From UHGV virus genome UHGV-0180691: a stretch of DNA of 40,865 nucleotides. One strand, written 5' to 3'. Position 1 is the stretch's first letter, and every line of letters begins with the position of its first letter. This DNA is from a virus. Below the pieces are notes generated by a model. That model saw only the letters and a program-made list of their open reading frames with translations. It did not search any database and was not told where the DNA came from. This document shows, one piece after another, positions 1-40,815 of the stretch. The position numbers and the translations under genes were made by a program.

Positions 1-4
1 TTTA

Positions 5-706
5 TTGATATGGCTAGTCCTGAGAAACAATCCTTACAAAGGAGTTGATTTGAGCCTGGTTGAACTTAAGGACACCCTTTCGGGGGTGTCTACTTTTGCA
101 TGGATGTTCAGTGTTGTAAGTATAATTCTTGTCTTTATAGGTTGGTTCGTTACTTACAATAACTCGTTAAAAATTGCTACTCGTTCCGAGTCAAAGTCAA
201 TAATAGATGCTATTGCTAAAATTTTAAATGAAGTTTCAGATTTATCCCTCGAATATTGGGTTAATAAATCTGTTTCTCCAAGTGCGAACCCTTTTAAAAG
301 AGCAGCGAATTCTAATCCTTTTAAAAAGAAAAGGTTAGAGTCTCCCACGGGGTTATCCACACCCAGCGCAAAATTATTCATGACTGCTATTCATGGGAAG
401 TCGATACAAATAAATAAGTACATTGACTTTTTGCGTAGCAGGGGATTTGTAATATCTGACTCATTTTTCACTCAAGTTCTCATTAAAGCCACTATGGAAT
501 ATGAGAAATCATTTGTATACAGTAAAACTTACAGGGTGACACGTGCTCAAGAGGTTGCAAGTGCTTGCACTGATTTTATGATGCACTTGTACGATGAATT
601 TCAAAGAAATTATCCTCCTCGAATGCCATTTTCAATATGCGATAAAATAAGAAAATTAGATGATGATATTGACAAATGGTATCAAGGGCTTTATGAGCGG
701 CAATAA
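5..706 (+). CDS. hypothetical membrane protein; AT-rich accessory gene beside integrase (5' end may lie beyond the window)
   Basis: Reading frame is open to the window start (track begins with TTG at 5; first in-frame ATG at 104). Hydrophobic N-terminal segment FAWMFSVVSIILVFIGWFV. Visibly AT-rich compared with neighbouring phage genes (by eye, not computed). Convergent with int. No motif recognised. Confidence 0.4.
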   Translation: MIWLVLRNNPYKGVDLSLVELKDTLSGVSTFAWMFSVVSIILVFIGWFVTYNNSLKIATRSESKSIIDAIAKILNEVSDLSLEYWVNKSVSPSANPFKRAANSNPFKKKRLESPTGLSTPSAKLFMTAIHGKSIQINKYIDFLRSRGFVISDSFFTQVLIKATMEYEKSFVYSKTYRVTRAQEVASACTDFMMHLYDEFQRNYPPRMPFSICDKIRKLDDDIDKWYQGLYERQ

Positions 707-713
707 TTGCCGC
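697..713. terminator. 17-bp perfect palindrome GCGGCAAT-A-ATTGCCGC between convergent genes, followed by T-rich sequence; possible terminator hairpin
   Basis: Palindrome read directly from sequence; centred on the TAA stop of the 5-706 ORF; T-run at 722-729 is not immediately adjacent, so terminator function is uncertain. Confidence 0.3.
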
Positions 714-719
714 TTGTGT

Positions 720-1883
720 TTAAGATTTTTTTTCTATCGATGTCCTTCCATCATACTCAGTCAGGTATTTTCCGTAATGGCGGAACAGCATTTCCGGTCC
801 CTTATGCCCCATTTGTCCCGCAAGCCAAAACAGGTTAGCTCCTTGACTGATATGTCTGGTGGCGAACGTATGCCTAGTCTGATATGGGTTTCTATAACGA
901 ATACCAGCCTTACGTAATGTTGGAACCCATGCTTTTTTTCTAATTGCATCAGCACTGGCCCAAGGTTTGTTCCTTTTTGGGTCTTCGAATATCATTTCAC
1001 CTTTCATAAAAGTGAACAGTTTCTGGCTGTCGAGAGCCGCCAATGCTTCTTCAGTCAGTTCTACTTTCCTTGTGCCTGCTTTTGTTTTTGTTGCTTTAAT
1101 GACACCAACTACACTGGCATTTTGAACGTGTGCTGTCCTGCCTACAAAGTCGATATCACGCCAACGAAGAGCACACAACTCAGAACTACGCAGCCCGGTT
1201 TGTATAGCGAACCGAAAAAGGTTCTCACACTGCTTATTGCCAGTTGCTGAGAGCAATGCGTCAACTTCTGTTGGCGTCAAAGGATCTACCACATAACTAC
1301 TTTCTGCCTCTGATTTATCACTTTGGTAACGTGAGGCTGTCACTAGTGATACAGGGTTAATCTGAAGAATACCATCCGTCACCGCCTCATCCAAAGCAGA
1401 ACGCAGGAATGACAGCTGGTTTCGAATAGTCTTTAATGTGGTTTTCTGGCTCTGGATCCATGTCTTCAATGCAGCTGGCGTCAACTCACTTGCAGGAAAA
1501 ATATGAAGTGCTGACAGCGCGCTTCGGCATTTCTTATATCCGCCAATTGTTGAAGGGGACAGTTTCCTCGTTTCGCATATCACCAAATATTCGTCCAAGT
1601 ACATCTTCACAGTTTTACCGGCGGCAGCGTTGCCAAAAATTCTTAACCGGTTAGAACGAGGAAAGTATTCCGCATAAACGAAAGTCCCCCTCTCGATCTT
1701 GTTATATATTTCTCCGAGTGTGCGCTCGGCGTACTTAATGTTTTTTGGAGTTACGTCCAGATTAGAAAGGGGCTCACGGCATTTTACCCCTTTATAAGTG
1801 AAGGTAATATTTATGGTTTCACCGTTGCGATGTTTCCTGATGGTTACGCCGCGTGGGAGTTTAGGCGATTCTGTCGTGCCCAT
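720..1883 (-). CDS. int: phage tyrosine integrase
   Basis: 387 aa; C-terminal catalytic region with conserved R...HxxR...Y context (RHTFATRHISQGANLFWLAGQMGHKGPEMLFRHYGKY); located at prophage end with overlapping excisionase-like gene upstream. Confidence 0.9.
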   Translation of the reverse strand: MGTTESPKLPRGVTIRKHRNGETINITFTYKGVKCREPLSNLDVTPKNIKYAERTLGEIYNKIERGTFVYAEYFPRSNRLRIFGNAAAGKTVKMYLDEYLVICETRKLSPSTIGGYKKCRSALSALHIFPASELTPAALKTWIQSQKTTLKTIRNQLSFLRSALDEAVTDGILQINPVSLVTASRYQSDKSEAESSYVVDPLTPTEVDALLSATGNKQCENLFRFAIQTGLRSSELCALRWRDIDFVGRTAHVQNASVVGVIKATKTKAGTRKVELTEEALAALDSQKLFTFMKGEMIFEDPKRNKPWASADAIRKKAWVPTLRKAGIRYRNPYQTRHTFATRHISQGANLFWLAGQMGHKGPEMLFRHYGKYLTEYDGRTSIEKKS

Positions 1884-2062
1884 TTTGCAACCTCACTAAG
1901 ATCAATCCATCTTTCCTTAACGCCTTCGACCTTTAGCACCTGAACCCCTTCACGCCACACTCCGCGCTGTATGCGCTTATTAATAGCATCAGGGGTTTCG
2001 CCAGTCTCTTTGCAATAAGTTGAGATGGGAACACAATCGAGGCTCAGCATATACTTCTCCAT
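1844..2062 (-). CDS. xis: excisionase-like small DNA-binding protein
   Basis: 72 aa basic protein immediately upstream of and overlapping int start; position typical of xis. Confidence 0.55.
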   Translation of the reverse strand: MEKYMLSLDCVPISTYCKETGETPDAINKRIQRGVWREGVQVLKVEGVKERWIDLSEVAKWARQNRLNSHAA

Positions 2063-5777: not shown

Positions 5778-6473
5778 TTATCCGTGCCGTTTAACTGACT
5801 GCGACTGGCTGATCATTACCTTGCCGAAAACGTAAAATCTGTCTTCATTGGACTTATCCACTGACCACTCCCGATATTTAGGGTTATCGGAAATGACAAG
5901 AATTTTATCTGGGATCATCTGTAATCTTTTGACGTAAATTTTATCATCAAAACCAAAGACATAAATCCCATCACCATCAAACTCATTAATCGAAATATCA
6001 ACGAATATCAAATCACCTGGTTCAATGGTATCAGCCATGCTGTCACCACGAACGTTAATCACTTTGACCGTATCTGGTGTTCTCCCACCAAATAATGCGG
6101 CGGCTCTTTCGTTGTTGTACTCAATGGACCTGATGACATCGACGACATCACTACCTTGTATATGGCCCATGCCAGCACTGGCGCTGACATCGAGCAACTC
6201 GACTCTAAACACAGGGTCACCCTCTCCATAAGCTGGATTTTTACCACTGGATTTACATACAGTATTTTCATTTGGAGATGGTGTAAAGAGTTCTGCCACG
6301 CTGACACCAAGTGCCGTAGCATATTTGCTAAGCGATTGTTCAGTAAATGACTTTTGTTTTCCAGTCTCAACCCGTGAGACGTTCGCACCGTCAATACCTA
6401 CAGCTTCAGCAAGATCTGAAATTTTCATGCCCTTTTCGAGGCGTAATTCTCTAATGCGGTTTCCTATGTTCAT
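5778..6473 (-). CDS. cI: CI-like prophage repressor (N-terminal HTH, C-terminal LexA/S24-like autopeptidase domain)
   Basis: 231 aa; N-terminal HTH (IRELRLEKGMKISDLAEAVGIDGANVSRVETG); C-terminal domain with GDSM and VKRL context typical of S24 Ser/Lys dyad; divergent from cro-like gene. Confidence 0.9.
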   Translation of the reverse strand: MNIGNRIRELRLEKGMKISDLAEAVGIDGANVSRVETGKQKSFTEQSLSKYATALGVSVAELFTPSPNENTVCKSSGKNPAYGEGDPVFRVELLDVSASAGMGHIQGSDVVDVIRSIEYNNERAAALFGGRTPDTVKVINVRGDSMADTIEPGDLIFVDISINEFDGDGIYVFGFDDKIYVKRLQMIPDKILVISDNPKYREWSVDKSNEDRFYVFGKVMISQSQSVKRHG

Positions 6474-9455: not shown

Positions 9456-11385
9456 AATCATCGTTGATAACTTTGCCGGTGGTGGCGGCGCGAGTACCGG
9501 CATTGAACTGGCCATCGGGCGTAGCGTGGATATCGCTATCAACCACGACGAAAACGCTATTGCGATGCATAAGACGAATCACCCAGACACGCTGCATTAT
9601 TGCGAGTCGGTGTTTGACGTTGACCCAAGCGCAGCCACCAGCGGTAAACCTGTCGGCCTGGCCTGGTTTAGCCCTGACTGCCGCCACTTTTCCAAAGCGA
9701 AGGGCGCTAAGCCAGTTAAGAAAGAGATTCGCGGGCTGGCGTGGATTGTTCTGCGCTGGGCGCTGGCAGTACGTCCCCGAGTCATGATGCTGGAGAACGT
9801 CGAAGAATTTAAGACATGGGGCCCGCTGCTGGATGAAGAATTACGCCCGGATCCTGAGCGTGCTGGTGAAACATTCGAGGCATTTGTCGGCATGCTGTCG
9901 ACTGGTATCGCTGCGAATCACCCAGCACTGGCTGAGGTTTGCGAATTTCTTGCCATTGAGCCGCACGGCAAGCAGGCGCAACAGCTGATCGCCGGGCTTG
10001 GCTATGAGGTCGATTATCGTGAACTGCGCGCTTGTGACTATGGCGCGCCGACGATCAGAAAGCGTTTCTTCATGGTCATGCGTTGTGACGGCCGCAAGAT
10101 TCATTGGCCTGAAGCGACTCATGGGGATCCAAAATCACTGGAAGTACAAAGCGGCAAGCTGGCGCCATGGCGTACCGCGGCGGAGTGCATTGACTGGAAT
10201 ATCCCGGCCCGGTCCATCTTCGACCGCAAAAAGCCGCTGGCGGAAAATACGCTCAAACGTATCGCGCGCGGCATCCAGCGTTTCGTTATCGAGAGTGCTT
10301 CGCCGTTTATCGTTAAGTGCAACCACACCACGTCACACGGCAAATATGATTGTTTCCGTGGGCAGGAGCTCGAGGCTCCATTACAAACCATCACGAAAAC
10401 CCACGGCTATGCGCTGGCGGTACCGCATCTTACTAAATTCCGCACCGGGGCCACCGGGCAGCCAGTGACCGAGCCGGTTCCAACTGTCACCGCTGGTACG
10501 TCGGCGCGCCCGGGCGGGAATGGACATGCGCTTGGCGTAGTTGAGGCCGCCCTGACACCGTTCCTGGCTGGCAATGGCGGCAGTGAGTACCAGGCAAAGC
10601 CGCGCCCGCTGGATAAACCCGCTCATACAATCCTCAAGCAGTCCCACGCGTGCGTGGTTGCGCCGGTCATCGCCCGCCAGTTTGGCGCCAGTGTTGGGCA
10701 CAGGGCTGACGAACCGAGCGCGACGATTACTGCAGGTGGTGGCGGTAAGTCGCAGCTGGTAACTCCAACATTGATCCAGATGGGGTACGGCGAACGCCCA
10801 GGACAAGAACCGCGTGTTCTTCAACTGAATAACCCGCTCGGCACGGTCACTGCTGGTGGTAATAAGTTTGCAACGGTGAGCGCGTTCCTGGCGAAGCACT
10901 ATGGTGGGAATTACACGGGGCCGGGTGTTGGTATGGATGAGCCTGCCCATTCAGTCACTACTGTTGATCATCACGCGGTAGTTGCGTCGCACCTGGTGAA
11001 GCTGCGCGGAACCTGCCGCGACGGTCAGACCATGGATACACCTATGCCGACGATTACCGCTGGTGGCCAGCATGTTGGCGAGGTCCGGACATTCCTCGAA
11101 ACATACTGCGGTGATAGCGAGGATGAATGGCTGGTGACGATCGAGGGGGTTAAGTACCAGATCGTCGATATCGGAATGCGCATGCTGCAACCGCATGAGC
11201 TTTATAAGGCGCAGGGCTTCCCTGACGGCTACGTTATCGATCAGGACTATCGCGGCAATCGTTACGCCAAAGACAAGCAGGTAGCGCGCTGCGGTAACGC
11301 AGTACCGCCGCCGTTCGCTCGTGCTCTGGTAGAAGCAAATCTTCCTGAATTATGTGCAAATCAAAAGGCGGGTGCAGCCGCCTGA
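9448..11385 (+). CDS. DNA cytosine-5 methyltransferase with extended repeat-containing variable region
   Basis: Start at ATG 9448 (MREIIVDNFAGGGGASTG = motif I); SPDCRHFS (catalytic Cys motif IV), MLENVEEF (ENV motif VI), C-terminal LQGFP and GNAVPPPFARAL (motifs IX/X); about 360-aa region between motifs VIII and IX with repeated T(V/I)TAGG modules. Confidence 0.85.
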   Translation: MREIIVDNFAGGGGASTGIELAIGRSVDIAINHDENAIAMHKTNHPDTLHYCESVFDVDPSAATSGKPVGLAWFSPDCRHFSKAKGAKPVKKEIRGLAWIVLRWALAVRPRVMMLENVEEFKTWGPLLDEELRPDPERAGETFEAFVGMLSTGIAANHPALAEVCEFLAIEPHGKQAQQLIAGLGYEVDYRELRACDYGAPTIRKRFFMVMRCDGRKIHWPEATHGDPKSLEVQSGKLAPWRTAAECIDWNIPARSIFDRKKPLAENTLKRIARGIQRFVIESASPFIVKCNHTTSHGKYDCFRGQELEAPLQTITKTHGYALAVPHLTKFRTGATGQPVTEPVPTVTAGTSARPGGNGHALGVVEAALTPFLAGNGGSEYQAKPRPLDKPAHTILKQSHACVVAPVIARQFGASVGHRADEPSATITAGGGGKSQLVTPTLIQMGYGERPGQEPRVLQLNNPLGTVTAGGNKFATVSAFLAKHYGGNYTGPGVGMDEPAHSVTTVDHHAVVASHLVKLRGTCRDGQTMDTPMPTITAGGQHVGEVRTFLETYCGDSEDEWLVTIEGVKYQIVDIGMRMLQPHELYKAQGFPDGYVIDQDYRGNRYAKDKQVARCGNAVPPPFARALVEANLPELCANQKAGAAA

Positions 11386-14003: not shown

Positions 14004-14291
14004 TTAAGGGAAAACACTACTCCATTGGAATTGAGCTCCTGCATCGAAGATTGTTAGCTCTGCGACATCTCTTGGTGTTCTCTTAGCTTTAAATGCTGGG
14101 CTATTTTCGTAAAAGCACTTCATGTTTTTCATATAGCGGTATAACACATCGCCAGAAGCATCATAAATAATAAATGAATCAATATTATGTGTATTAGTCT
14201 TTGATTCATTCGGGTCGATGTAACAAACAATGTTTCTTATAGCTTGGCGCACTTGCGCGATACTCTGAAATGACACAACTAGTACCTCCAA
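14004..14291 (-). CDS. doubtful hypothetical ORF in AT-rich spacer
   Basis: 95 aa but TTG start and weak RBS; internal ATG lacks an RBS; listed only because it is the sole ORF in a roughly 690-bp AT-rich interval. Confidence 0.15.
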   Translation of the reverse strand: MEVLVVSFQSIAQVRQAIRNIVCYIDPNESKTNTHNIDSFIIYDASGDVLYRYMKNMKCFYENSPAFKAKRTPRDVAELTIFDAGAQFQWSSVFP

Positions 14292-14550: not shown

Positions 14551-15603
14551 ATGAAAAATACTGTAAATATAAACAGTGTTGAGCTTATCAACGCTGACTG
14601 CCTGCAATACCTAGCAACCCTCCCAGATAACACCATCGACCTTATTGTTACGGATCCGCCTTATTTTAAGGTGAAGCCGAACGGCTGGGATAATCAGTGG
14701 AACGGTGACGCCGACTATCTTCGCTGGCTTGATATGTGTCTTGCCCAGTTCTGGCGAGTGCTTAAGCCTGCCGGCAGCCTGTATTTGTTTTCAGGTCACC
14801 GACTTGCATCCGATATTGAGATCATGATGCGTGAACGCTTCAACGTCATGAACCACATTATCTGGGCGAAGCCATCAGGGCGCTGGAACGGGTGTAATAA
14901 AGAAAGCCTGCGCTCTTACTTTCCCGCGACGGAACGCATCCTTTTCGCTGAGCATTATCAGGGGCCATATAAGCCGAAAAGCGACGGGTTTGCTGAGAAA
15001 AGCAACGAGGTCAAACAGCACGTCATGGCTCCGTTAATCACCTACTTTCGGGATGCACGAGCCGAACTGGGGGTCACGTCCAGGCAAATAGCTGACGCCA
15101 CCGGAAAGAAAAATATGGTGTCTCACTGGTTCGGTGCCAGTCAGTGGCAACTACCGAACGAGCAGGATTACGAAAAGCTGCAGGAATTGTTCACTCAGAT
15201 CGCCATTGAGAAGCACCGCGCCTCAGAACTCAAAGCACCGCATCACCAGCTGGTGGCCACATGGCATTCGTTGAACCGGAAATACCTTGATCTGCTGGAA
15301 GAGTACAAATCTCTTCGGCGGCATTTCTCTGTGACAGTAGCCGTGCCCTATACAGACGTCTGGACACATAAACCCGTCCAGTTCTATCCAGGCAAACACC
15401 CGTGCGAAAAGCCCGCTGATATGTTGCGGCAAATCATCAACGCCAGCAGCAGGCCCGGCGATGTGGTAGCTGATTTCTTTATGGGCTCGGGATCAACTGT
15501 TAAAGCAGCCATTGAACTGGGCCGCCAGGCTATCGGCGTAGAACTGGAAGAGGAACGTTTCAACCAGACGGTAAGTGAGGTGAGGCAGCTGGCAGGGGAA
15601 TAA
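14551..15603 (+). CDS. DNA methyltransferase, N6-adenine/N4-cytosine class (beta-type, DPPY motif)
   Basis: 350 aa; VTDPPYF (motif IV) near N-terminus and FFMGSGST (motif I, AdoMet binding) near C-terminus, the order typical of beta-class amino-methyltransferases. Confidence 0.8.
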   Translation: MKNTVNINSVELINADCLQYLATLPDNTIDLIVTDPPYFKVKPNGWDNQWNGDADYLRWLDMCLAQFWRVLKPAGSLYLFSGHRLASDIEIMMRERFNVMNHIIWAKPSGRWNGCNKESLRSYFPATERILFAEHYQGPYKPKSDGFAEKSNEVKQHVMAPLITYFRDARAELGVTSRQIADATGKKNMVSHWFGASQWQLPNEQDYEKLQELFTQIAIEKHRASELKAPHHQLVATWHSLNRKYLDLLEEYKSLRRHFSVTVAVPYTDVWTHKPVQFYPGKHPCEKPADMLRQIINASSRPGDVVADFFMGSGSTVKAAIELGRQAIGVELEEERFNQTVSEVRQLAGE

Positions 15604-17354: not shown

Positions 17355-17852
17355 TTAATCACACTCTTGCCGTTGCCGATCTAGAGTGTTAAGTGCCTTC
17401 ATGTAAGCGCTATACGCTCCCTTAAATGTTTGTCCAGCCTGCTCAATTGCCGACTCTTGTAATTCTTGATTATTACCAGCGCTGTCTGCGAGATAAAAGG
17501 CCTTAAGAACGTTCGCCGCAACTAAACCCAGCTCAGGAGGGGCGTAGGTCATTACTTCTGTAGCGCTTTGAACTACGGGTAACATATCTTTTCTCAGGTC
17601 GCCTCTGGTCATTGGGTTGGTCAATGCAGGAGAAAAGCCAAACGAAGTAACTGAAACCATAAATTGATTATATTTTTCTCTCAATAGTGACTCCTGCTTA
17701 TCTAAACGAATAATGCAGGCTGTTTTGGAGGCATTGTGAGTTTGTAAATAGTTTCCATACAATCCCAAAAGCGCAGTAATGCTTACACCAAGTAAGGTAC
17801 AGATTACGGGAAAAATGACATTAAACTGGTTTATCCGTGGGCGACTGCTCAT
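17355..17852 (-). CDS. hypothetical single-pass membrane protein; AT-rich insert between lysis and packaging modules
   Basis: ATG at 17852 preceded by AAGGAG with 8-nt spacer; N-terminal hydrophobic helix (FNVIFPVICTLLGVSITALLGLYG); antisense to the late operon; own downstream terminator; AT-rich by eye. Confidence 0.55.
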   Translation of the reverse strand: MSSRPRINQFNVIFPVICTLLGVSITALLGLYGNYLQTHNASKTACIIRLDKQESLLREKYNQFMVSVTSFGFSPALTNPMTRGDLRKDMLPVVQSATEVMTYAPPELGLVAANVLKAFYLADSAGNNQELQESAIEQAGQTFKGAYSAYMKALNTLDRQRQECD

Positions 17853-18263
17853 GACCAAAGCTCCTTAGTTAACAACTTAATTTTCACTAATTAGTAAGTC
17901 CATATTTGCTTGCCATGATTTTAACATCAAGCTCCAGAACGTGGTTGGTAATCATTTTTAGAGTCTCTTTACTTCCAGATTTGACCGTTTTTGTTAATTA
18001 ATTTCCAGCTGGAGAAATGAGGCTAACCGCCTCGATCAGCAAGGGACCGGCAATACTGGTGTCAAAGCATACACGAGAATGAATCTCATAAGTAAAAGGT
18101 ACTCCTGGCGATTATAAACACCGAGGGGGCGAGGACACGCGGAAAAAGCCAAATTTTTGCATTTTTATCGGCCATCACCACCACTTCAATTCATTGAAAC
18201 ATCGGGATAAAAATTTTTCCGGTGTCGATTCTGTTTGTTTTTTGTTCATCACTGGAGCCATTC

Positions 18264-37074: not shown

Positions 37075-37094
37075 TACTGTATATAAAAACAGTG
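37075..37094. promoter_or_regulatory. LexA binding site (SOS box) in umuDC promoter
   Basis: TACTGTATATAAAAACAGTG = CTGT-N8-ACAG consensus, 16 nt upstream of umuD start codon. Confidence 0.85.
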
Positions 37095-37109
37095 TTTGAG
37101 GTGTGTGCA

Positions 37110-37529
37110 ATGGAATTCATCAGGCCAACAGAACTGCGAGAAATTATCGCTCTCCCGCTTTTCAGTGACTTAGTTCAGTGTGGTTTCCCAAGTCCTGCAG
37201 CTGATTACGTTGAACAGCGTATCGATCTCAATGAGTTACTTGTCGCTCACCCGAGTTCAACGTATTTCGTCAAAGCCGCGGGTGATTCTATGATCGAAGC
37301 CGGGATCAGCGACGGTGATCTTCTGGTGGTGGACAGCTCCAGGACTGCTGAGCATGGTGATATTGTCATCGCTGCGGTGGAAGGGGAGTTCACTGTTAAA
37401 CGCCTTCAGCTGCGCCCGACCGTGCAACTCAATCCTATGAACAGCGCCTATAGTCCGATTGTTGTGGGCAGCGAAGACACGCTGGACGTTTTCGGCGTCG
37501 TGACTTTCATCGTTAAATCTGCGAGCTGA
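37110..37529 (+). CDS. umuD: UmuD, error-prone polymerase V accessory subunit (S24 autopeptidase)
   Basis: 139 aa; near-identical stretches to E. coli UmuD as I recall it ([44 protein letters not shown]); LexA box upstream. Confidence 0.85.
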
Positions 37530-37531
37530 AT

Positions 37532-38800
37532 ATGTTTGCGCTCTGTGATGTGAATTCGTTCTACGCATCATGCGAGACGGTGTTTCGGCCAGATTTGAAA
37601 GGGCGGCCAGTGGTTGTTCTTTCGAATAATGATGGCTGTGTAATAGCACGAAGCGCCGAGGCCAAAGCCGCTGGAATTACTATGGGAGAGCCGTTCTTTA
37701 AGCAAAAGGAGCTTTTCCGGCGCGCTGGCGTTGTCTGCTTCAGCAGCAACTATGAGCTGTATGCTGATATGTCGAACCGGGTAATGACGACGCTTGAGGA
37801 AATGAGCCCCCGCGTTGAAATTTACAGTATCGATGAAGCTTTTTGTGACCTGACGGGCGTTAGGAACTGCCGGGACCTGACTGACTTTGGCAAAGAGATC
37901 CGCGCTACAGTTCTGAAGCGAACGCACTTGACTGTCGGGGTTGGCATTGCCCAGACAAAGACATTGGCGAAGCTTGCCAATCACGCAGCGAAGAAATGGC
38001 AGCGCCAGACCGGCGGGGTAGTGGACCTGTCGAACATTGACCGTCAGCGGCGGTTACTGGCTATTGTACCTGTGGAGGATGTATGGGGTGTCGGCAGACG
38101 CATTAGCAAAAAGCTGAACGCCATGGGCATCAAAACAGCTCTGGACCTCTCAGAACAAAGCACCTGGATTATCCGTAAACACTTTAACGTTGTACTCGAG
38201 CGAACTGTCCGGGAACTGCGCGGTGAACCATGTCTGGAGCTTGAAGAGTTTGCGCCGGCAAAGCAGGAAATCGTGTGCAGCAGGTCTTTTGGTGAACGCG
38301 TCACCGAATACGAACAGATGCGGCAAGCTATTTGCAGCTATGCGGCGCGTGGTGCCGAAAAGCTTCGGGGCGAGCATCAGTATTGCCGCTTTATCTCTGC
38401 CTTCGTGAAAACCTCTCCATTCGCGCTTAATGAGCCGTATTACGGTAATAGCGCTTCAATGAAGCTTCTCATACCTACACAGGATTCCCGCGACATTATC
38501 AACGCCGCAGTAAAGTGCCTGGACAAAATCTGGAAGGATGGTCACCGGTACCAGAAGGCAGGAATCATGCTTGGGGATTTTTTCAGCCAGGGTGTGGCCC
38601 AACTTAACTTGTTCGACGATAACGCCCCGCGGGCCGGCAGCGAAAGGTTGATGGAGGTGCTTGATCACTTGAACGACAAAGATGGAAAAGGCACCCTGTA
38701 CTTCGCGGGGCAGGGCATTCAGCAGCAGTGGCAGATGAAACGAGAAATGTTGTCGCCGCGATATACGACGAGATATTCAGATCTGCTAAGAGTCCGATAA
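37532..38800 (+). CDS. umuC: UmuC, Y-family DNA polymerase V catalytic subunit
   Basis: 422 aa; N-terminal [15 protein letters not shown] and SIDEAF motifs of Y-family polymerases; immediately downstream of umuD. Confidence 0.9.
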
Positions 38801-38932
38801 GTATTCCTGATGTCTTGGTCCGCTTTGTGTCATTCGCAGACATTGGCGGAATAGAAAGCAGCCGTGATGTGTTTTCATTAACTATGGTTACGTTAGAATA
38901 GGCTCGTTGAAAACGAGATAACTGGAGTATAA

Positions 38933-39577
38933 ATGTTTGCTGATTTTGGTATCGTGAATTTCTGGACGTACCTGCTTGGTGCGACGCTGATCGTCCTTGC
39001 GCCTGGCCCTGAAACCATGTTCGTGATTAAAACGAGCATCACCAGCGGCATCAAGCGGGGCTTTGCTGCCATATTTTCCATTCTACTGAGCGACGTTATT
39101 CTGGTTCTGCTGGCATGGTGTGGGCTGGCCGCGGTCATAAGCTCAACCCCTGCCTTGTTTAACGCCATCAAATACGCAGGCGCTGTTTATCTTTTCTATC
39201 TCGGTGTCCAGACGATACGCGCTATCTTTAAGCAAACTGTCGAAACAAGTGAGGAAAAGAACTCTTCAGCTGATACCGGGGGGATCATCGGACGCGGAAT
39301 GCTGGTTACTCTTCTGAATCCAAAAACACTGCTGTTCTATATCTCTTTCTTCGCCCAGTTTATCAATGTTCAGGCTGAACACTCCTGGATGGCGTTCATC
39401 ATTCTGGCAGCAGTGATGTTCGCAATTACTCTCGTTTATTTCGGCTTTCTCGTTTTCTGCGGCTCTTATCTGCTCAGTCGTCTGAAAGGTAATCGTAGAT
39501 TATCGGCGATTGGAAACGCGTTGGTAGGGATGTTCTTCATTGGATTTGCAGCACGGCTCGCAAGCGCAACTTCTTAA
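38933..39577 (+). CDS. leuE: LysE/RhtB-family amino-acid exporter (LeuE/YeaS-like)
   Basis: 214 aa, about six predicted TM helices; strong similarity to E. coli LeuE as recalled (MFAEYGVLNYWTYLVGA...); GGAG RBS. Confidence 0.75.
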   Translation: MFADFGIVNFWTYLLGATLIVLAPGPETMFVIKTSITSGIKRGFAAIFSILLSDVILVLLAWCGLAAVISSTPALFNAIKYAGAVYLFYLGVQTIRAIFKQTVETSEEKNSSADTGGIIGRGMLVTLLNPKTLLFYISFFAQFINVQAEHSWMAFIILAAVMFAITLVYFGFLVFCGSYLLSRLKGNRRLSAIGNALVGMFFIGFAARLASATS

Positions 39578-39588
39578 CTGGACAGCTA

Positions 39589-39611
39589 AACCGCCGTGAG
39601 GCGGTTTTTTT
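39589..39611 (+). terminator. rho-independent terminator after leuE-like gene
   Basis: Stem AACCGCC / GGCGGTT with loop GTGA followed by T7. Confidence 0.7.
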
Positions 39612-39678
39612 CGTAATTTTGCTGGATGGTACGTCCGCTTATCGCTTATTTCGAGCGTGCAACGTCTGCTTTGTCCTT

Positions 39679-40350
39679 TCATCCTGTAGCCTCTATAAGC
39701 TCCGGCCCTTGATTCTTCACGTTCCCCACGGCGTGCGTCACGGCGTGCCATATAAACTTGTCTGCTGGAACAGCACCGTCAGCTGCTATCTCTTCAGCTT
39801 CTTTCCCTCCTATATCTTGACGCATCCACTCCCGGGCGGCTGCTGGCGACAAAACAAGTGGTCGACGGTCGTGAATATCTACCAGACCTTTATCCGCTGC
39901 CGATGTCACAATGAGAAAACCTTCCGCATCATCGCCGCGCTCAAACGGTGTGCTGCCGATCGCCGCCATAAAAATCGGCTGGCCGTCTGCCCGGTGAATG
40001 AAATATGGCTGCTTTCTGTCGCCTTCCTTCTTCCACTCGAACCATCCATCAGCAAAGCAGATTGCCCGGCCATGCTGCCAGAGAGGCTTGAACATCCTGC
40101 TGGTGGCCGCTGTCTCGACACGCGCGTTTATCAATGGTGCTTTATCCCACCATCCTGGCGCGTAAGACCACAGGACCGGATCAAGATGCAGCTGCTCGTC
40201 GCGTTCGCTCAGCAGCAGAACTTTGGTACCAGGCGCCACGTTGTACCGGCCAATAGGTTCCGGATCATACGCAATGTCACGGTCGGCTTCATCGGCCAGG
40301 TATGACAGATATTCTTCACGGGTCTGGGCTTGTGCAAAACGTCCACACAT
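39679..40350 (-). CDS. yedK: SOS-response-associated peptidase (SRAP, abasic-site processing protein YedK)
   Basis: 223 aa starting MCGRFAQ (catalytic Cys2); high similarity to E. coli YedK as recalled. Confidence 0.85.
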   Translation of the reverse strand: MCGRFAQAQTREEYLSYLADEADRDIAYDPEPIGRYNVAPGTKVLLLSERDEQLHLDPVLWSYAPGWWDKAPLINARVETAATSRMFKPLWQHGRAICFADGWFEWKKEGDRKQPYFIHRADGQPIFMAAIGSTPFERGDDAEGFLIVTSAADKGLVDIHDRRPLVLSPAAAREWMRQDIGGKEAEEIAADGAVPADKFIWHAVTHAVGNVKNQGPELIEATG

Positions 40351-40575
40351 AGAAACCTCCAGTCAGTCAGACTGAAAGTATAGGGCAGGGAGAAAAAGTA
40401 GCGCGCGCTGGTTAAGTCTTACAAACGGATTCGCGGTGAATATGCTGATGAGGATGAAATGCGTAAAGCGATACGTTGTGAAACTGGAAGGAGTTACGCA
40501 AAGTTGCGACAAAGCCAAAAGAGAACGCTAAATCCGGTAGGGGATCCGGGTTCGCTGTGATGACAATATGGAAAT

Positions 40576-40815
40576 TCATTCATTAGTAAGCCACATATCA
40601 GACTCTTCAAACATATCCTCCAGCATACGGTTCAACTTTTCACGGTCACTTTTGCTGGCATCACTATTCAATCCGTTAGCCTGCATAGGCTTAACCTTCA
40701 CTTCAGCATCAGGGAATATGCTATGAACTCGCCTCGTCAGCTCAGCCAAAATAATTTCTCTTGCGCCATCCAAGCCCTGAACATTTCGCTTATCGTAAAC
40801 CAACTCAACAAACAT
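40576..40815 (-). CDS. dinI: DinI-family DNA-damage-inducible protein
   Basis: 79 aa acidic protein with DinI-like C-terminus (EESDMWLTNE); AGGAGA RBS; possible LexA box truncated by the window end. Confidence 0.7.
   Translation of the reverse strand: MFVELVYDKRNVQGLDGAREIILAELTRRVHSIFPDAEVKVKPMQANGLNSDASKSDREKLNRMLEDMFEESDMWLTNE

Follow-up and report, generated by a model that had tools for sequence, protein, structure and literature searches.

What is encoded by the AT-rich open reading frame (ORF) that runs up to the left edge of the virus genome UHGV-0180691, tail to tail with an integrase gene, and does it belong to a prophage? We analysed the whole stretch of 40,865 nucleotides (hereafter the window), of which an annotation made from the letters alone (the sequence-only reading) had treated this ORF as a stand-alone gene for a 233-residue membrane protein, possibly truncated by the window. 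The ORF, here called gene 3, proves to be the third member of a conserved three-gene module that the window cuts off. Its two partners resemble the kinase and the antitoxin of VapKSC, a three-gene toxin–antitoxin system (Chambers, Rani, Min, Villa and Corbett, EMBO J 2026, PMC13373217). From the comparisons set out below we lean, by a modest degree, towards reading gene 3 as a kinase-gated membrane effector in the toxin position of a VapKS-type prophage module.

The open frame extends on the + strand from TTG 5 to TAA 704-706 and, as previously noted, meets no stop back to the window edge. The coding region of gene 3 within it is 50-706 (+), giving 218 residues from a TTG start at position 50 in place of the 233 residues reported before. 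A Shine–Dalgarno sequence, AAGGAG at 39-44 (+), lies 5 nt before this codon and is invariant in the Escherichia coli homologues. Gene callers chose TTG 50 in the contigs that encode the exact protein (24 read, 8 places shown), NCBI records also give 218 residues, and annotation of the E. coli homologue begins at the corresponding codon. The bases further upstream belong to another gene: in frame 1, window positions 1-48 read FIDMASPEKQSLQRS followed by a stop (TGA 46-48, 1 nt ahead of TTG 50), and this peptide is identical to the C terminus of a 113-residue DUF4325 gene at 9658-9996 of locus L003, in which window position 1 corresponds to 9952. Because the upstream frame is a different gene that ends at 46-48, gene 3 is complete and is not the 3′ part of a larger gene; what the window cuts is the operon. 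The Shine–Dalgarno sequence of gene 3 sits within the end of the upstream gene, and the stop–start spacing therefore suggests translational coupling. The AT-richness remarked on earlier is reflected in a GC fraction of 0.359 for gene 3 (50-706), against 0.43-0.44 for genes 1 and 2, 0.449 for the integrase gene and 0.529 for the whole window. The first 2000 bases of the window are identical to locus L006.

All 8 places shown share one gene order: the 307-residue gene 1, the 113-residue PF14213 gene 2, the 218-residue gene 3, the convergent integrase gene, xis and the lambdoid early genes. Gene 2 overlaps gene 1 by 8 nt, and gene 3 starts 1 nt past the gene 2 stop. Scanning IMG/VR with an alignment of gene 1 returned 39 loci at 23-98% identity, and hidden Markov models of the three families placed gene 1, gene 2 and gene 3 in this order in every one of them (39/39); a homologue of the window integrase lay convergent behind the trio in 21 of the 39. 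The arrangement was also seen around distant relatives of gene 3, drawn from a profile search of 1.84 billion representatives in which the gene 3 family numbered 108. Five out of five such relatives (18-37% identity) stand behind a gene of 296-382 residues with no Pfam match on record and a DUF4325 gene of 104-116 residues. The three genes are a strictly co-inherited module with gene 3 last.

The trio is carried by temperate phages of Enterobacter, E. coli, Klebsiella and Cronobacter, and Rouxiella is represented by a gene 3 homologue record only; the exact protein occurs in Enterobacter ludwigii, Enterobacter asburiae, Enterobacter hormaechei and Enterobacter roggenkampii. Searches by tblastn, with gene 3 against INPHARED phages and PLSDB plasmids and with gene 1 against phages, gave no matches. 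Megablast of window positions 1-2000 against phages and E. coli genomes matched the integrase part alone, and species-representative genomes scanned with the gene 3 alignment yielded pattern matches and no confirmed relative. A distant trio (gene 3 at 23% identity; locus L014, 6531-12272) is found at one end of a P2-like prophage, following gpD, lysozyme and Dam methylase genes, and adjoins a 637-residue SIR2_2/TPR gene in a defence-island-like neighbourhood. A Francisella temperate phage has, near its integrase gene, a 293-residue protein, a 112-residue DUF4325 protein and a 125-residue transmembrane protein (PMC7924643).

In VapKSC, the kinase VapK (STAS-GHKL, 302 residues) phosphorylates Ser48 of VapS, a 116-residue STAS antitoxin, and so releases the PIN toxin VapC; the operon gives ~100-fold protection against phage Bas42 (PMC13373217). 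We took the VapK and VapS sequences from the supplementary model file of that paper and used a VapK-family profile of 24 sequences. Against this profile, the gene 1 family aligned across 237 columns that take in the STAS as well as the GHKL half (hhalign probability 96.9%, E = 2e-10); against the single VapK sequence the probability was 94.9% (E = 4.7e-8). Gene 1 and five homologues (6/6 sequences) all showed a sub-threshold HATPase_c_2 match at the same position (E values of 7e-4 to 0.03; 14.8-20 bits against a cutoff of 27.4), and two of the six had weak STAS matches in their N-terminal third. The motifs of gene 1, comprising an N-box (E155-x3-N159-x3-H163-A-Y), a G1 box (D201-x-G-x-G205), a G2 box (R242-G-x-G245) and G292-T293, are each at least 95% conserved among 31 distinct sequences. 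By profile and motif, gene 1 has a STAS-like domain at its N terminus, joined to a serine-kinase domain of the GHKL (Bergerat-fold) type.

Gene 2 and VapS both fall into PF14213 (DUF4325), with E values of 9.3e-14 and 2.7e-17, respectively. The VapS phospho-site S48 aligns with S58 of gene 2, within the invariant segment G-S58-S59-F-L-E-E; S58-S59 occupy the position at which STAS proteins are canonically phosphorylated, and 29/29 distinct sequences share S58, S59 and F60. As judged from these alignments, genes 1 and 2 are homologous to VapK and VapS, with the kinase motifs and the phospho-serine conserved. The likeness extends to operon order and size classes (~300 residues of STAS plus GHKL, ~115 residues of STAS, then a third gene) and to a location on mobile elements or near defence genes. 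Identity between gene 1 and VapK is only ~16%, and gene 1 therefore belongs to a distant clade.

No helix-turn-helix (HTH) or winged HTH (wHTH) match was found in gene 1 or gene 2, the latter consisting of a STAS domain with a brief tail (113 residues in all), and we noticed no transmembrane segment on reading the two sequences by eye. Among PDB sequences, no significant match was found to gene 1, to gene 2 or to any of the three family profiles, and the VapS–VapC entry 9Z7O was not among the matches. Gene 1 matches phrog_3364 (E = 4e-42) and gene 2 matches phrog_5816 (E = 4.7e-15); these families and phrog_30059, to which gene 3 belongs, carry no functional annotation, and the three genes have therefore already been clustered as phage proteins. 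Gene 2 covers only positions 340-439 of the 441-position phrog_5816 profile, of which the DUF4325 part is C-terminal, suggesting that fused forms, possibly kinase–STAS, exist in other phages. Database names of the proteins are 'hypothetical' or 'STAS-like domain-containing' throughout, and literature searches (DUF4325, PF14213, accessions, and STAS with GHKL and phage) returned the CapK/VapKSC work and incidental mentions only.

Gene 3 encodes a membrane protein with one hydrophobic transmembrane helix at residues 17-36, AWMFSVVSIILVFIGWFVTY, in agreement with the single N-terminal helix of the sequence-only reading; a GW motif in this helix (G31-W32) is family-wide. Counted over 64 family members, lysine plus arginine total 29 in the 15 residues that precede the helix, as opposed to 238 in the 15 that follow it, and N-terminal extensions, where present, are acidic. 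An AlphaFold 2 model built from the 64-sequence alignment (predicted local distance difference test score (pLDDT) of 90.9, predicted template modelling score of 0.77) shows a continuous helix at 17-73, of which the first 20 residues are transmembrane, a disordered linker at 74-104 and bundle helices at 105-130, 137-148, 159-187 and 196-217. The positive-inside bias would place this bundle in the cytoplasm, in which genes 1 and 2 would also act, and gene 3 is predicted to be a single-pass inner-membrane protein, N-out/C-in, with a cytoplasmic four-helix bundle. An earlier model from a shallow alignment of 12 sequences reached a pLDDT of 56 and was discarded.

The product had been described as having no recognisable motif. 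That holds for curated libraries, as gene 3 has no significant Pfam, NCBIfam or PADLOC match and no PIN domain or other catalytic signature; it does not hold for phage protein families, since phrog_30059 matches the product over its full length (E = 1.4e-41; residues 12-213 against profile positions 12-203 of 205). The homology and structure search proposed at that time thus led to a PHROGs family, the 108 representatives and the four-helix-bundle model. Conservation across the family falls on W32, N38, E47 (in the motif ATRSE[ST]K just past the membrane), W70, T148, E152 and P190, and these residues, the polar N38, E47 and E152 among them, point to a specific interface or active site. With Foldseek, no PDB or BFVD match to gene 3 fell below E = 0.001. 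Weak matches to the PADLOC '2TM effector' (E = 0.008), Pfam DUF2621 and WH_Rok were disregarded as hydrophobic-segment or chance matches.

How might the three genes work together? Gene 3 toxicity, its binding by the STAS protein, the kinase trigger and phage protection are the parts that we infer, by analogy with VapKSC. In an uninfected lysogen, the STAS protein would bind the cytoplasmic bundle of gene 3 and keep gene 3 inactive. An infection or DNA-damage signal would then activate the kinase; single-stranded DNA (ssDNA) is the activating signal in VapK and in CapK, an HTH-STAS-GHKL protein that, with the STAS-wHTH protein CapS, forms a pair of regulators activated by DNA damage (PMC13373217). 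Phosphorylation of Ser58 by the kinase would cause the STAS protein to release gene 3, and freed gene 3 could act on the inner membrane by oligomerization, depolarization or permeabilization, such that the cell is arrested or killed before the incoming phage completes its cycle. We hold more tentatively, at slightly under even probability, the wider proposal that the VapK/VapS pair is a portable phospho-switch antitoxin that gates unrelated toxins, and that the toxin here would be of a new membrane class which, released on infection, collapses the inner membrane. The candidate effector family comprises about 100 clusters at 50% identity, with N38, E47 and E152 conserved. The prophage also carries umuDC, SRAP and DinI genes, so the cassette may link the sensing of DNA damage with abortive infection or with regulation of its own prophage's induction.

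Several observations weigh against a kinase-gated effector. The third gene here is an all-helical membrane protein with no PIN domain, to which VapC is unrelated; with the VapC/PIN feature tested and absent, the module is not to be filed as VapKSC itself, and that paper and its Dataset EV3 deal with VapC-containing operons only and do not mention a membrane variant (PMC13373217). The C-terminal helix through which VapS inhibits the toxin (residues 94-116) appears to lack a conserved counterpart in gene 2, whose tail past the invariant A103 varies from 0 to 15 residues and is not conserved. F54 of VapK, a putative contact to ssDNA, stands opposite Y48 of gene 1, in a column that is Y or F in 24/31 distinct sequences; the aromatic is only partly conserved, and the activating signal may therefore differ. 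Searches with genes 1, 2 and 3 of PADLOC-DB 2.0 found no match, and the fold matches of gene 3 are four-helix bundles, a generic architecture. Finally, the prophage is SOS-inducible, with a repressor bearing an S24 peptidase domain at window positions 5778-6473. A toxin triggered by DNA damage would risk aborting the induction of its own prophage, which argues for a different trigger or a non-lethal output.

The alternative that fares best casts gene 3 as a membrane sensor or scaffold rather than a toxin: the bundle would recruit or regulate the kinase–STAS pair, for example reporting phage DNA entry or envelope perturbation, and the output would be GHKL phosphorylation of other targets. We regard this as unlikely, though the least so of the rival explanations.

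Less probable again is a classical partner switch, in which gene 1, and not the STAS protein, sequesters gene 3 and unphosphorylated STAS protein displaces it; the membrane protein would still be what is set free, by a logic opposite to that of VapKSC. The SpoIIAB/SpoIIAA and RsbW/RsbV modules likewise pair a GHKL serine kinase with a STAS substrate carrying, where helix 2 begins, a serine that can be phosphorylated. The best Pfam match of all six gene 1 family members is the SpoIIAB/RsbW-type HATPase_c_2, the gene 1 N-box aligns with that of RsbW, and the C-terminal plug helix of the VapS type appears to be absent from gene 2, all of which would fit such a switch. Those HATPase_c_2 scores, however, are below curated thresholds, and gene 1 is closer to VapK (E = 2e-10, 237 columns) than to RsbW (E = 0.18, 30 residues), the two values coming from different methods. 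In addition, the kinase here has its own N-terminal STAS-like domain, the stop–start junction of genes 2 and 3 is the usual antitoxin–toxin arrangement, and the operon contains no sigma factor and no PP2C phosphatase with which the switch could be reset.

Gene 3 might also be an independent prophage moron, acting in superinfection exclusion or modulating lysis, that merely lies beside the kinase–STAS pair. Small membrane proteins encoded close to int or att commonly act as exclusion factors, and the GC fraction of gene 3 (0.36) is below that of genes 1 and 2. We nevertheless judge this very unlikely, because the trio occurs together and in order in all 44 relatives examined, at 18-98% identity and across varied prophage types and integration contexts. 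The coding regions are also tightly apposed. The CapK/CapS pair shares with genes 1 and 2 a GHKL kinase with a STAS domain and a STAS substrate with a conserved serine; CapS-type regulators need their C-terminal wHTH DNA-binding domain, and gene 2 lacks one. CapK differs further in having an extra N-terminal HTH, whereas gene 1 begins directly with its STAS domain, and CapS is the repressor of an immune operon of several genes that lies downstream (CBASS, Bub, Thoeris and others), whereas here a single membrane-protein gene is followed by the integrase gene.

Whether gene 3 belongs to a prophage or to the flanking chromosome had been called undecidable; the extended sequence places the gene in the prophage. 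Extension to the left, as had been proposed, gave the att junction. A 29-nt copy of the ssrA 3′ end lies on the minus strand at 8550-8578 of L003, ~1.4 kb upstream of window position 1 and 164 nt upstream of gene 1; it matches Rfam RF00023 (transfer-messenger RNA, tmRNA) at the model end and is followed by the native ssrA terminator. A consensus scan detected no sigma-70-type promoter in the 164 nt between this att core and gene 1. The host flank left of the core varies (Ada, PEP-mutase, SDR and LysR genes in L003, not in L005 or L009), and the right side is conserved. A cassette ~70% identical and of the same layout is present in 10/5426 complete E. coli genomes, and in one E. coli genome the prophage end lies 45 kb away at an intact ssrA beside smpB, with a 30-nt exact repeat at both ends. 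In an Enterobacter locus where another element occupies ssrA, the intact gene is accompanied by a second core copy, and this copy is followed by the same terminator as in the left flank of L003.

Because ssrA repeats bound the element, the host flank varies while the trio and int stay constant, and the GC fraction of 0.36-0.44 compares with 0.53 for the window, the cassette is prophage cargo, lying between the att junction and int of an ssrA-integrating lambdoid Enterobacter prophage. The integrase-proximal position expected of cargo or defence genes is thereby borne out, with the trio between the ssrA core and the convergent integrase gene. Neither a tRNA or tmRNA gene nor a copy of the ssrA core occurs in the window, which therefore includes neither prophage end; an att site in or beside the palindrome at 697-713 was rejected, the ssrA core lying elsewhere. 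That gene 3 might instead be a core gene of the host, or a larger gene's 3′ fragment, with att at 706-720 can be dismissed almost entirely: an open frame reaching the window edge is all that speaks for it, and against it stand the separate gene ending at 46-48, the att core 1.4 kb further left, travel with the integrase gene beside a varying host flank and the presence in so few complete E. coli genomes.

The ssrA site also hosts other elements. In Enterobacter, a degraded element between two ssrA cores (locus L058, 4622-10650) contains an AbiTii-domain gene, DinI, SRAP, DUF6530 and umuC-like genes and a truncated integrase gene. In E. coli CFSAN064035 the site holds tandem elements (L001, 1-6452, and L011, 32546-36402): to the left of the trio is a second integrase gene with a pair of genes for an 'ATP-binding protein' and a 'response regulator receiver domain', and at the other prophage end a GIY-YIG gene, a Dcm-type methyltransferase gene and a type II restriction endonuclease gene lie beside the intact ssrA.

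Two potential RNA structures mark the ends of gene 3. At its 3′ end, GCGGCAATAATTGCCGC at 697-713 is a perfect 17-bp palindrome, as the sequence-only reading had seen, with the gene 3 stop codon at its centre. The close convergence with the integrase gene also stands, with 13 nt between the gene 3 stop and the integrase stop codon (complement of 720-722). Because palindromes of this class number 4 in the window against 1.4 expected from mononucleotide shuffles, this one is by itself only mildly unusual. The E. coli relatives retain it, the outer pair having changed in compensation from A-T to G-C, and RNA folds of 696-714 reach -15.8 kcal/mol on the + strand (z = -2.2) and -11.9 kcal/mol on the - strand (z = -2.6) relative to shuffles. 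No canonical U-tract abuts the 696-714 stem, and a terminator scan made no call there. With modest confidence, the hairpin probably marks the 3′ end of one or both convergent transcripts, as a weak terminator or stabilizer. Near the 5′ end, 20 nt into the coding sequence, a terminator-like scan found a GC-rich 9-bp stem-loop at 70-91, GGACACCC-TTTC-GGGGGTGTCT. Its stem is kept in the E. coli homologues; the stem-loop, which also encodes the conserved peptide KDTLSGVS, could modulate translation of the putative effector or merely mirror that peptide. The integrase region on the far side of the 3′ hairpin shows 79-85% nucleotide matches to annotated integrases.

VapKSC was reported only in 2026, with a PIN nuclease as its sole output, and in the module described here a kinase–STAS pair is strictly coupled to a membrane protein. 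If the pair gates gene 3, STAS antitoxins under phosphorylation control would constitute a modular regulatory device whose effectors can be exchanged, as is the case for CBASS or Thoeris effectors, and gene 3 would represent a new family of membrane effectors, for which a confident structural model and clear targets for mutation are at hand. Three small genes make a concrete and cheap experimental system, with S58, N159, E47 and E152 as point-mutant targets. The locus also raises the question of how a DNA-damage-sensing toxin module could coexist with an SOS-inducible prophage.

Table 1. Features at the left end of the window and in its right-hand cargo region, in window coordinates.
Feature	Position	Strand	Basis
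3′ end of DUF4325 (VapS-like) gene 2, last 15 codons and TGA	1..48	+	Frame-1 translation; cut by window start
Shine–Dalgarno AAGGAG of gene 3	39..44	+	Read from sequence
Gene 3, 218-residue predicted single-pass membrane protein, putative effector in VapC position	50..706	+	Exact-protein contigs, phrog_30059, AlphaFold 2 model
9-bp stem-loop in 5′ coding end of gene 3	70..91	+	Terminator-like scan
Codons of the transmembrane helix, residues 17-36	98..157	+	Hydropathy, positive-inside count
Hairpin/palindrome over gene 3 stop codon	696..714	.	RNA folds, E. coli conservation
Tyrosine integrase, 387 residues, Arm-DNA-bind_2 and Phage_integrase, convergent with gene 3	720..1883	-	ORF list, contigs
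Excisionase-like small ORF upstream of int	1844..2062	-	Homologous region is 'xis: excisionase' in Citrobacter phage phiNP
umuD	37092-37529		
umuC	37532-38800		
LysE-type exporter	38933-39577		
SRAP/YedK-like protein	39679-40350	-	
DinI-like protein	40576-40815	-	

Elsewhere in the window, an AT-rich orphan ORF at 17355-17858 (-) lies between the lysis genes and the small terminase gene and encodes 167 residues with an N-terminal transmembrane helix; it has no PHROGs or PADLOC match and may be a second membrane-protein moron. Another AT-rich orphan ORF, of 95 residues (14004-14291, -), lies upstream of an N6/N4 DNA methyltransferase gene (14551-15603), which has a PADLOC type II methyltransferase match (E = 2e-146) and no restriction enzyme gene nearby. 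The right-hand cargo, at 37092-40815, is a DNA-damage-related cluster, of note here because relatives of the trio sense ssDNA. Other prophages, located at different sites, also have the DinI–SRAP pair at their ends.

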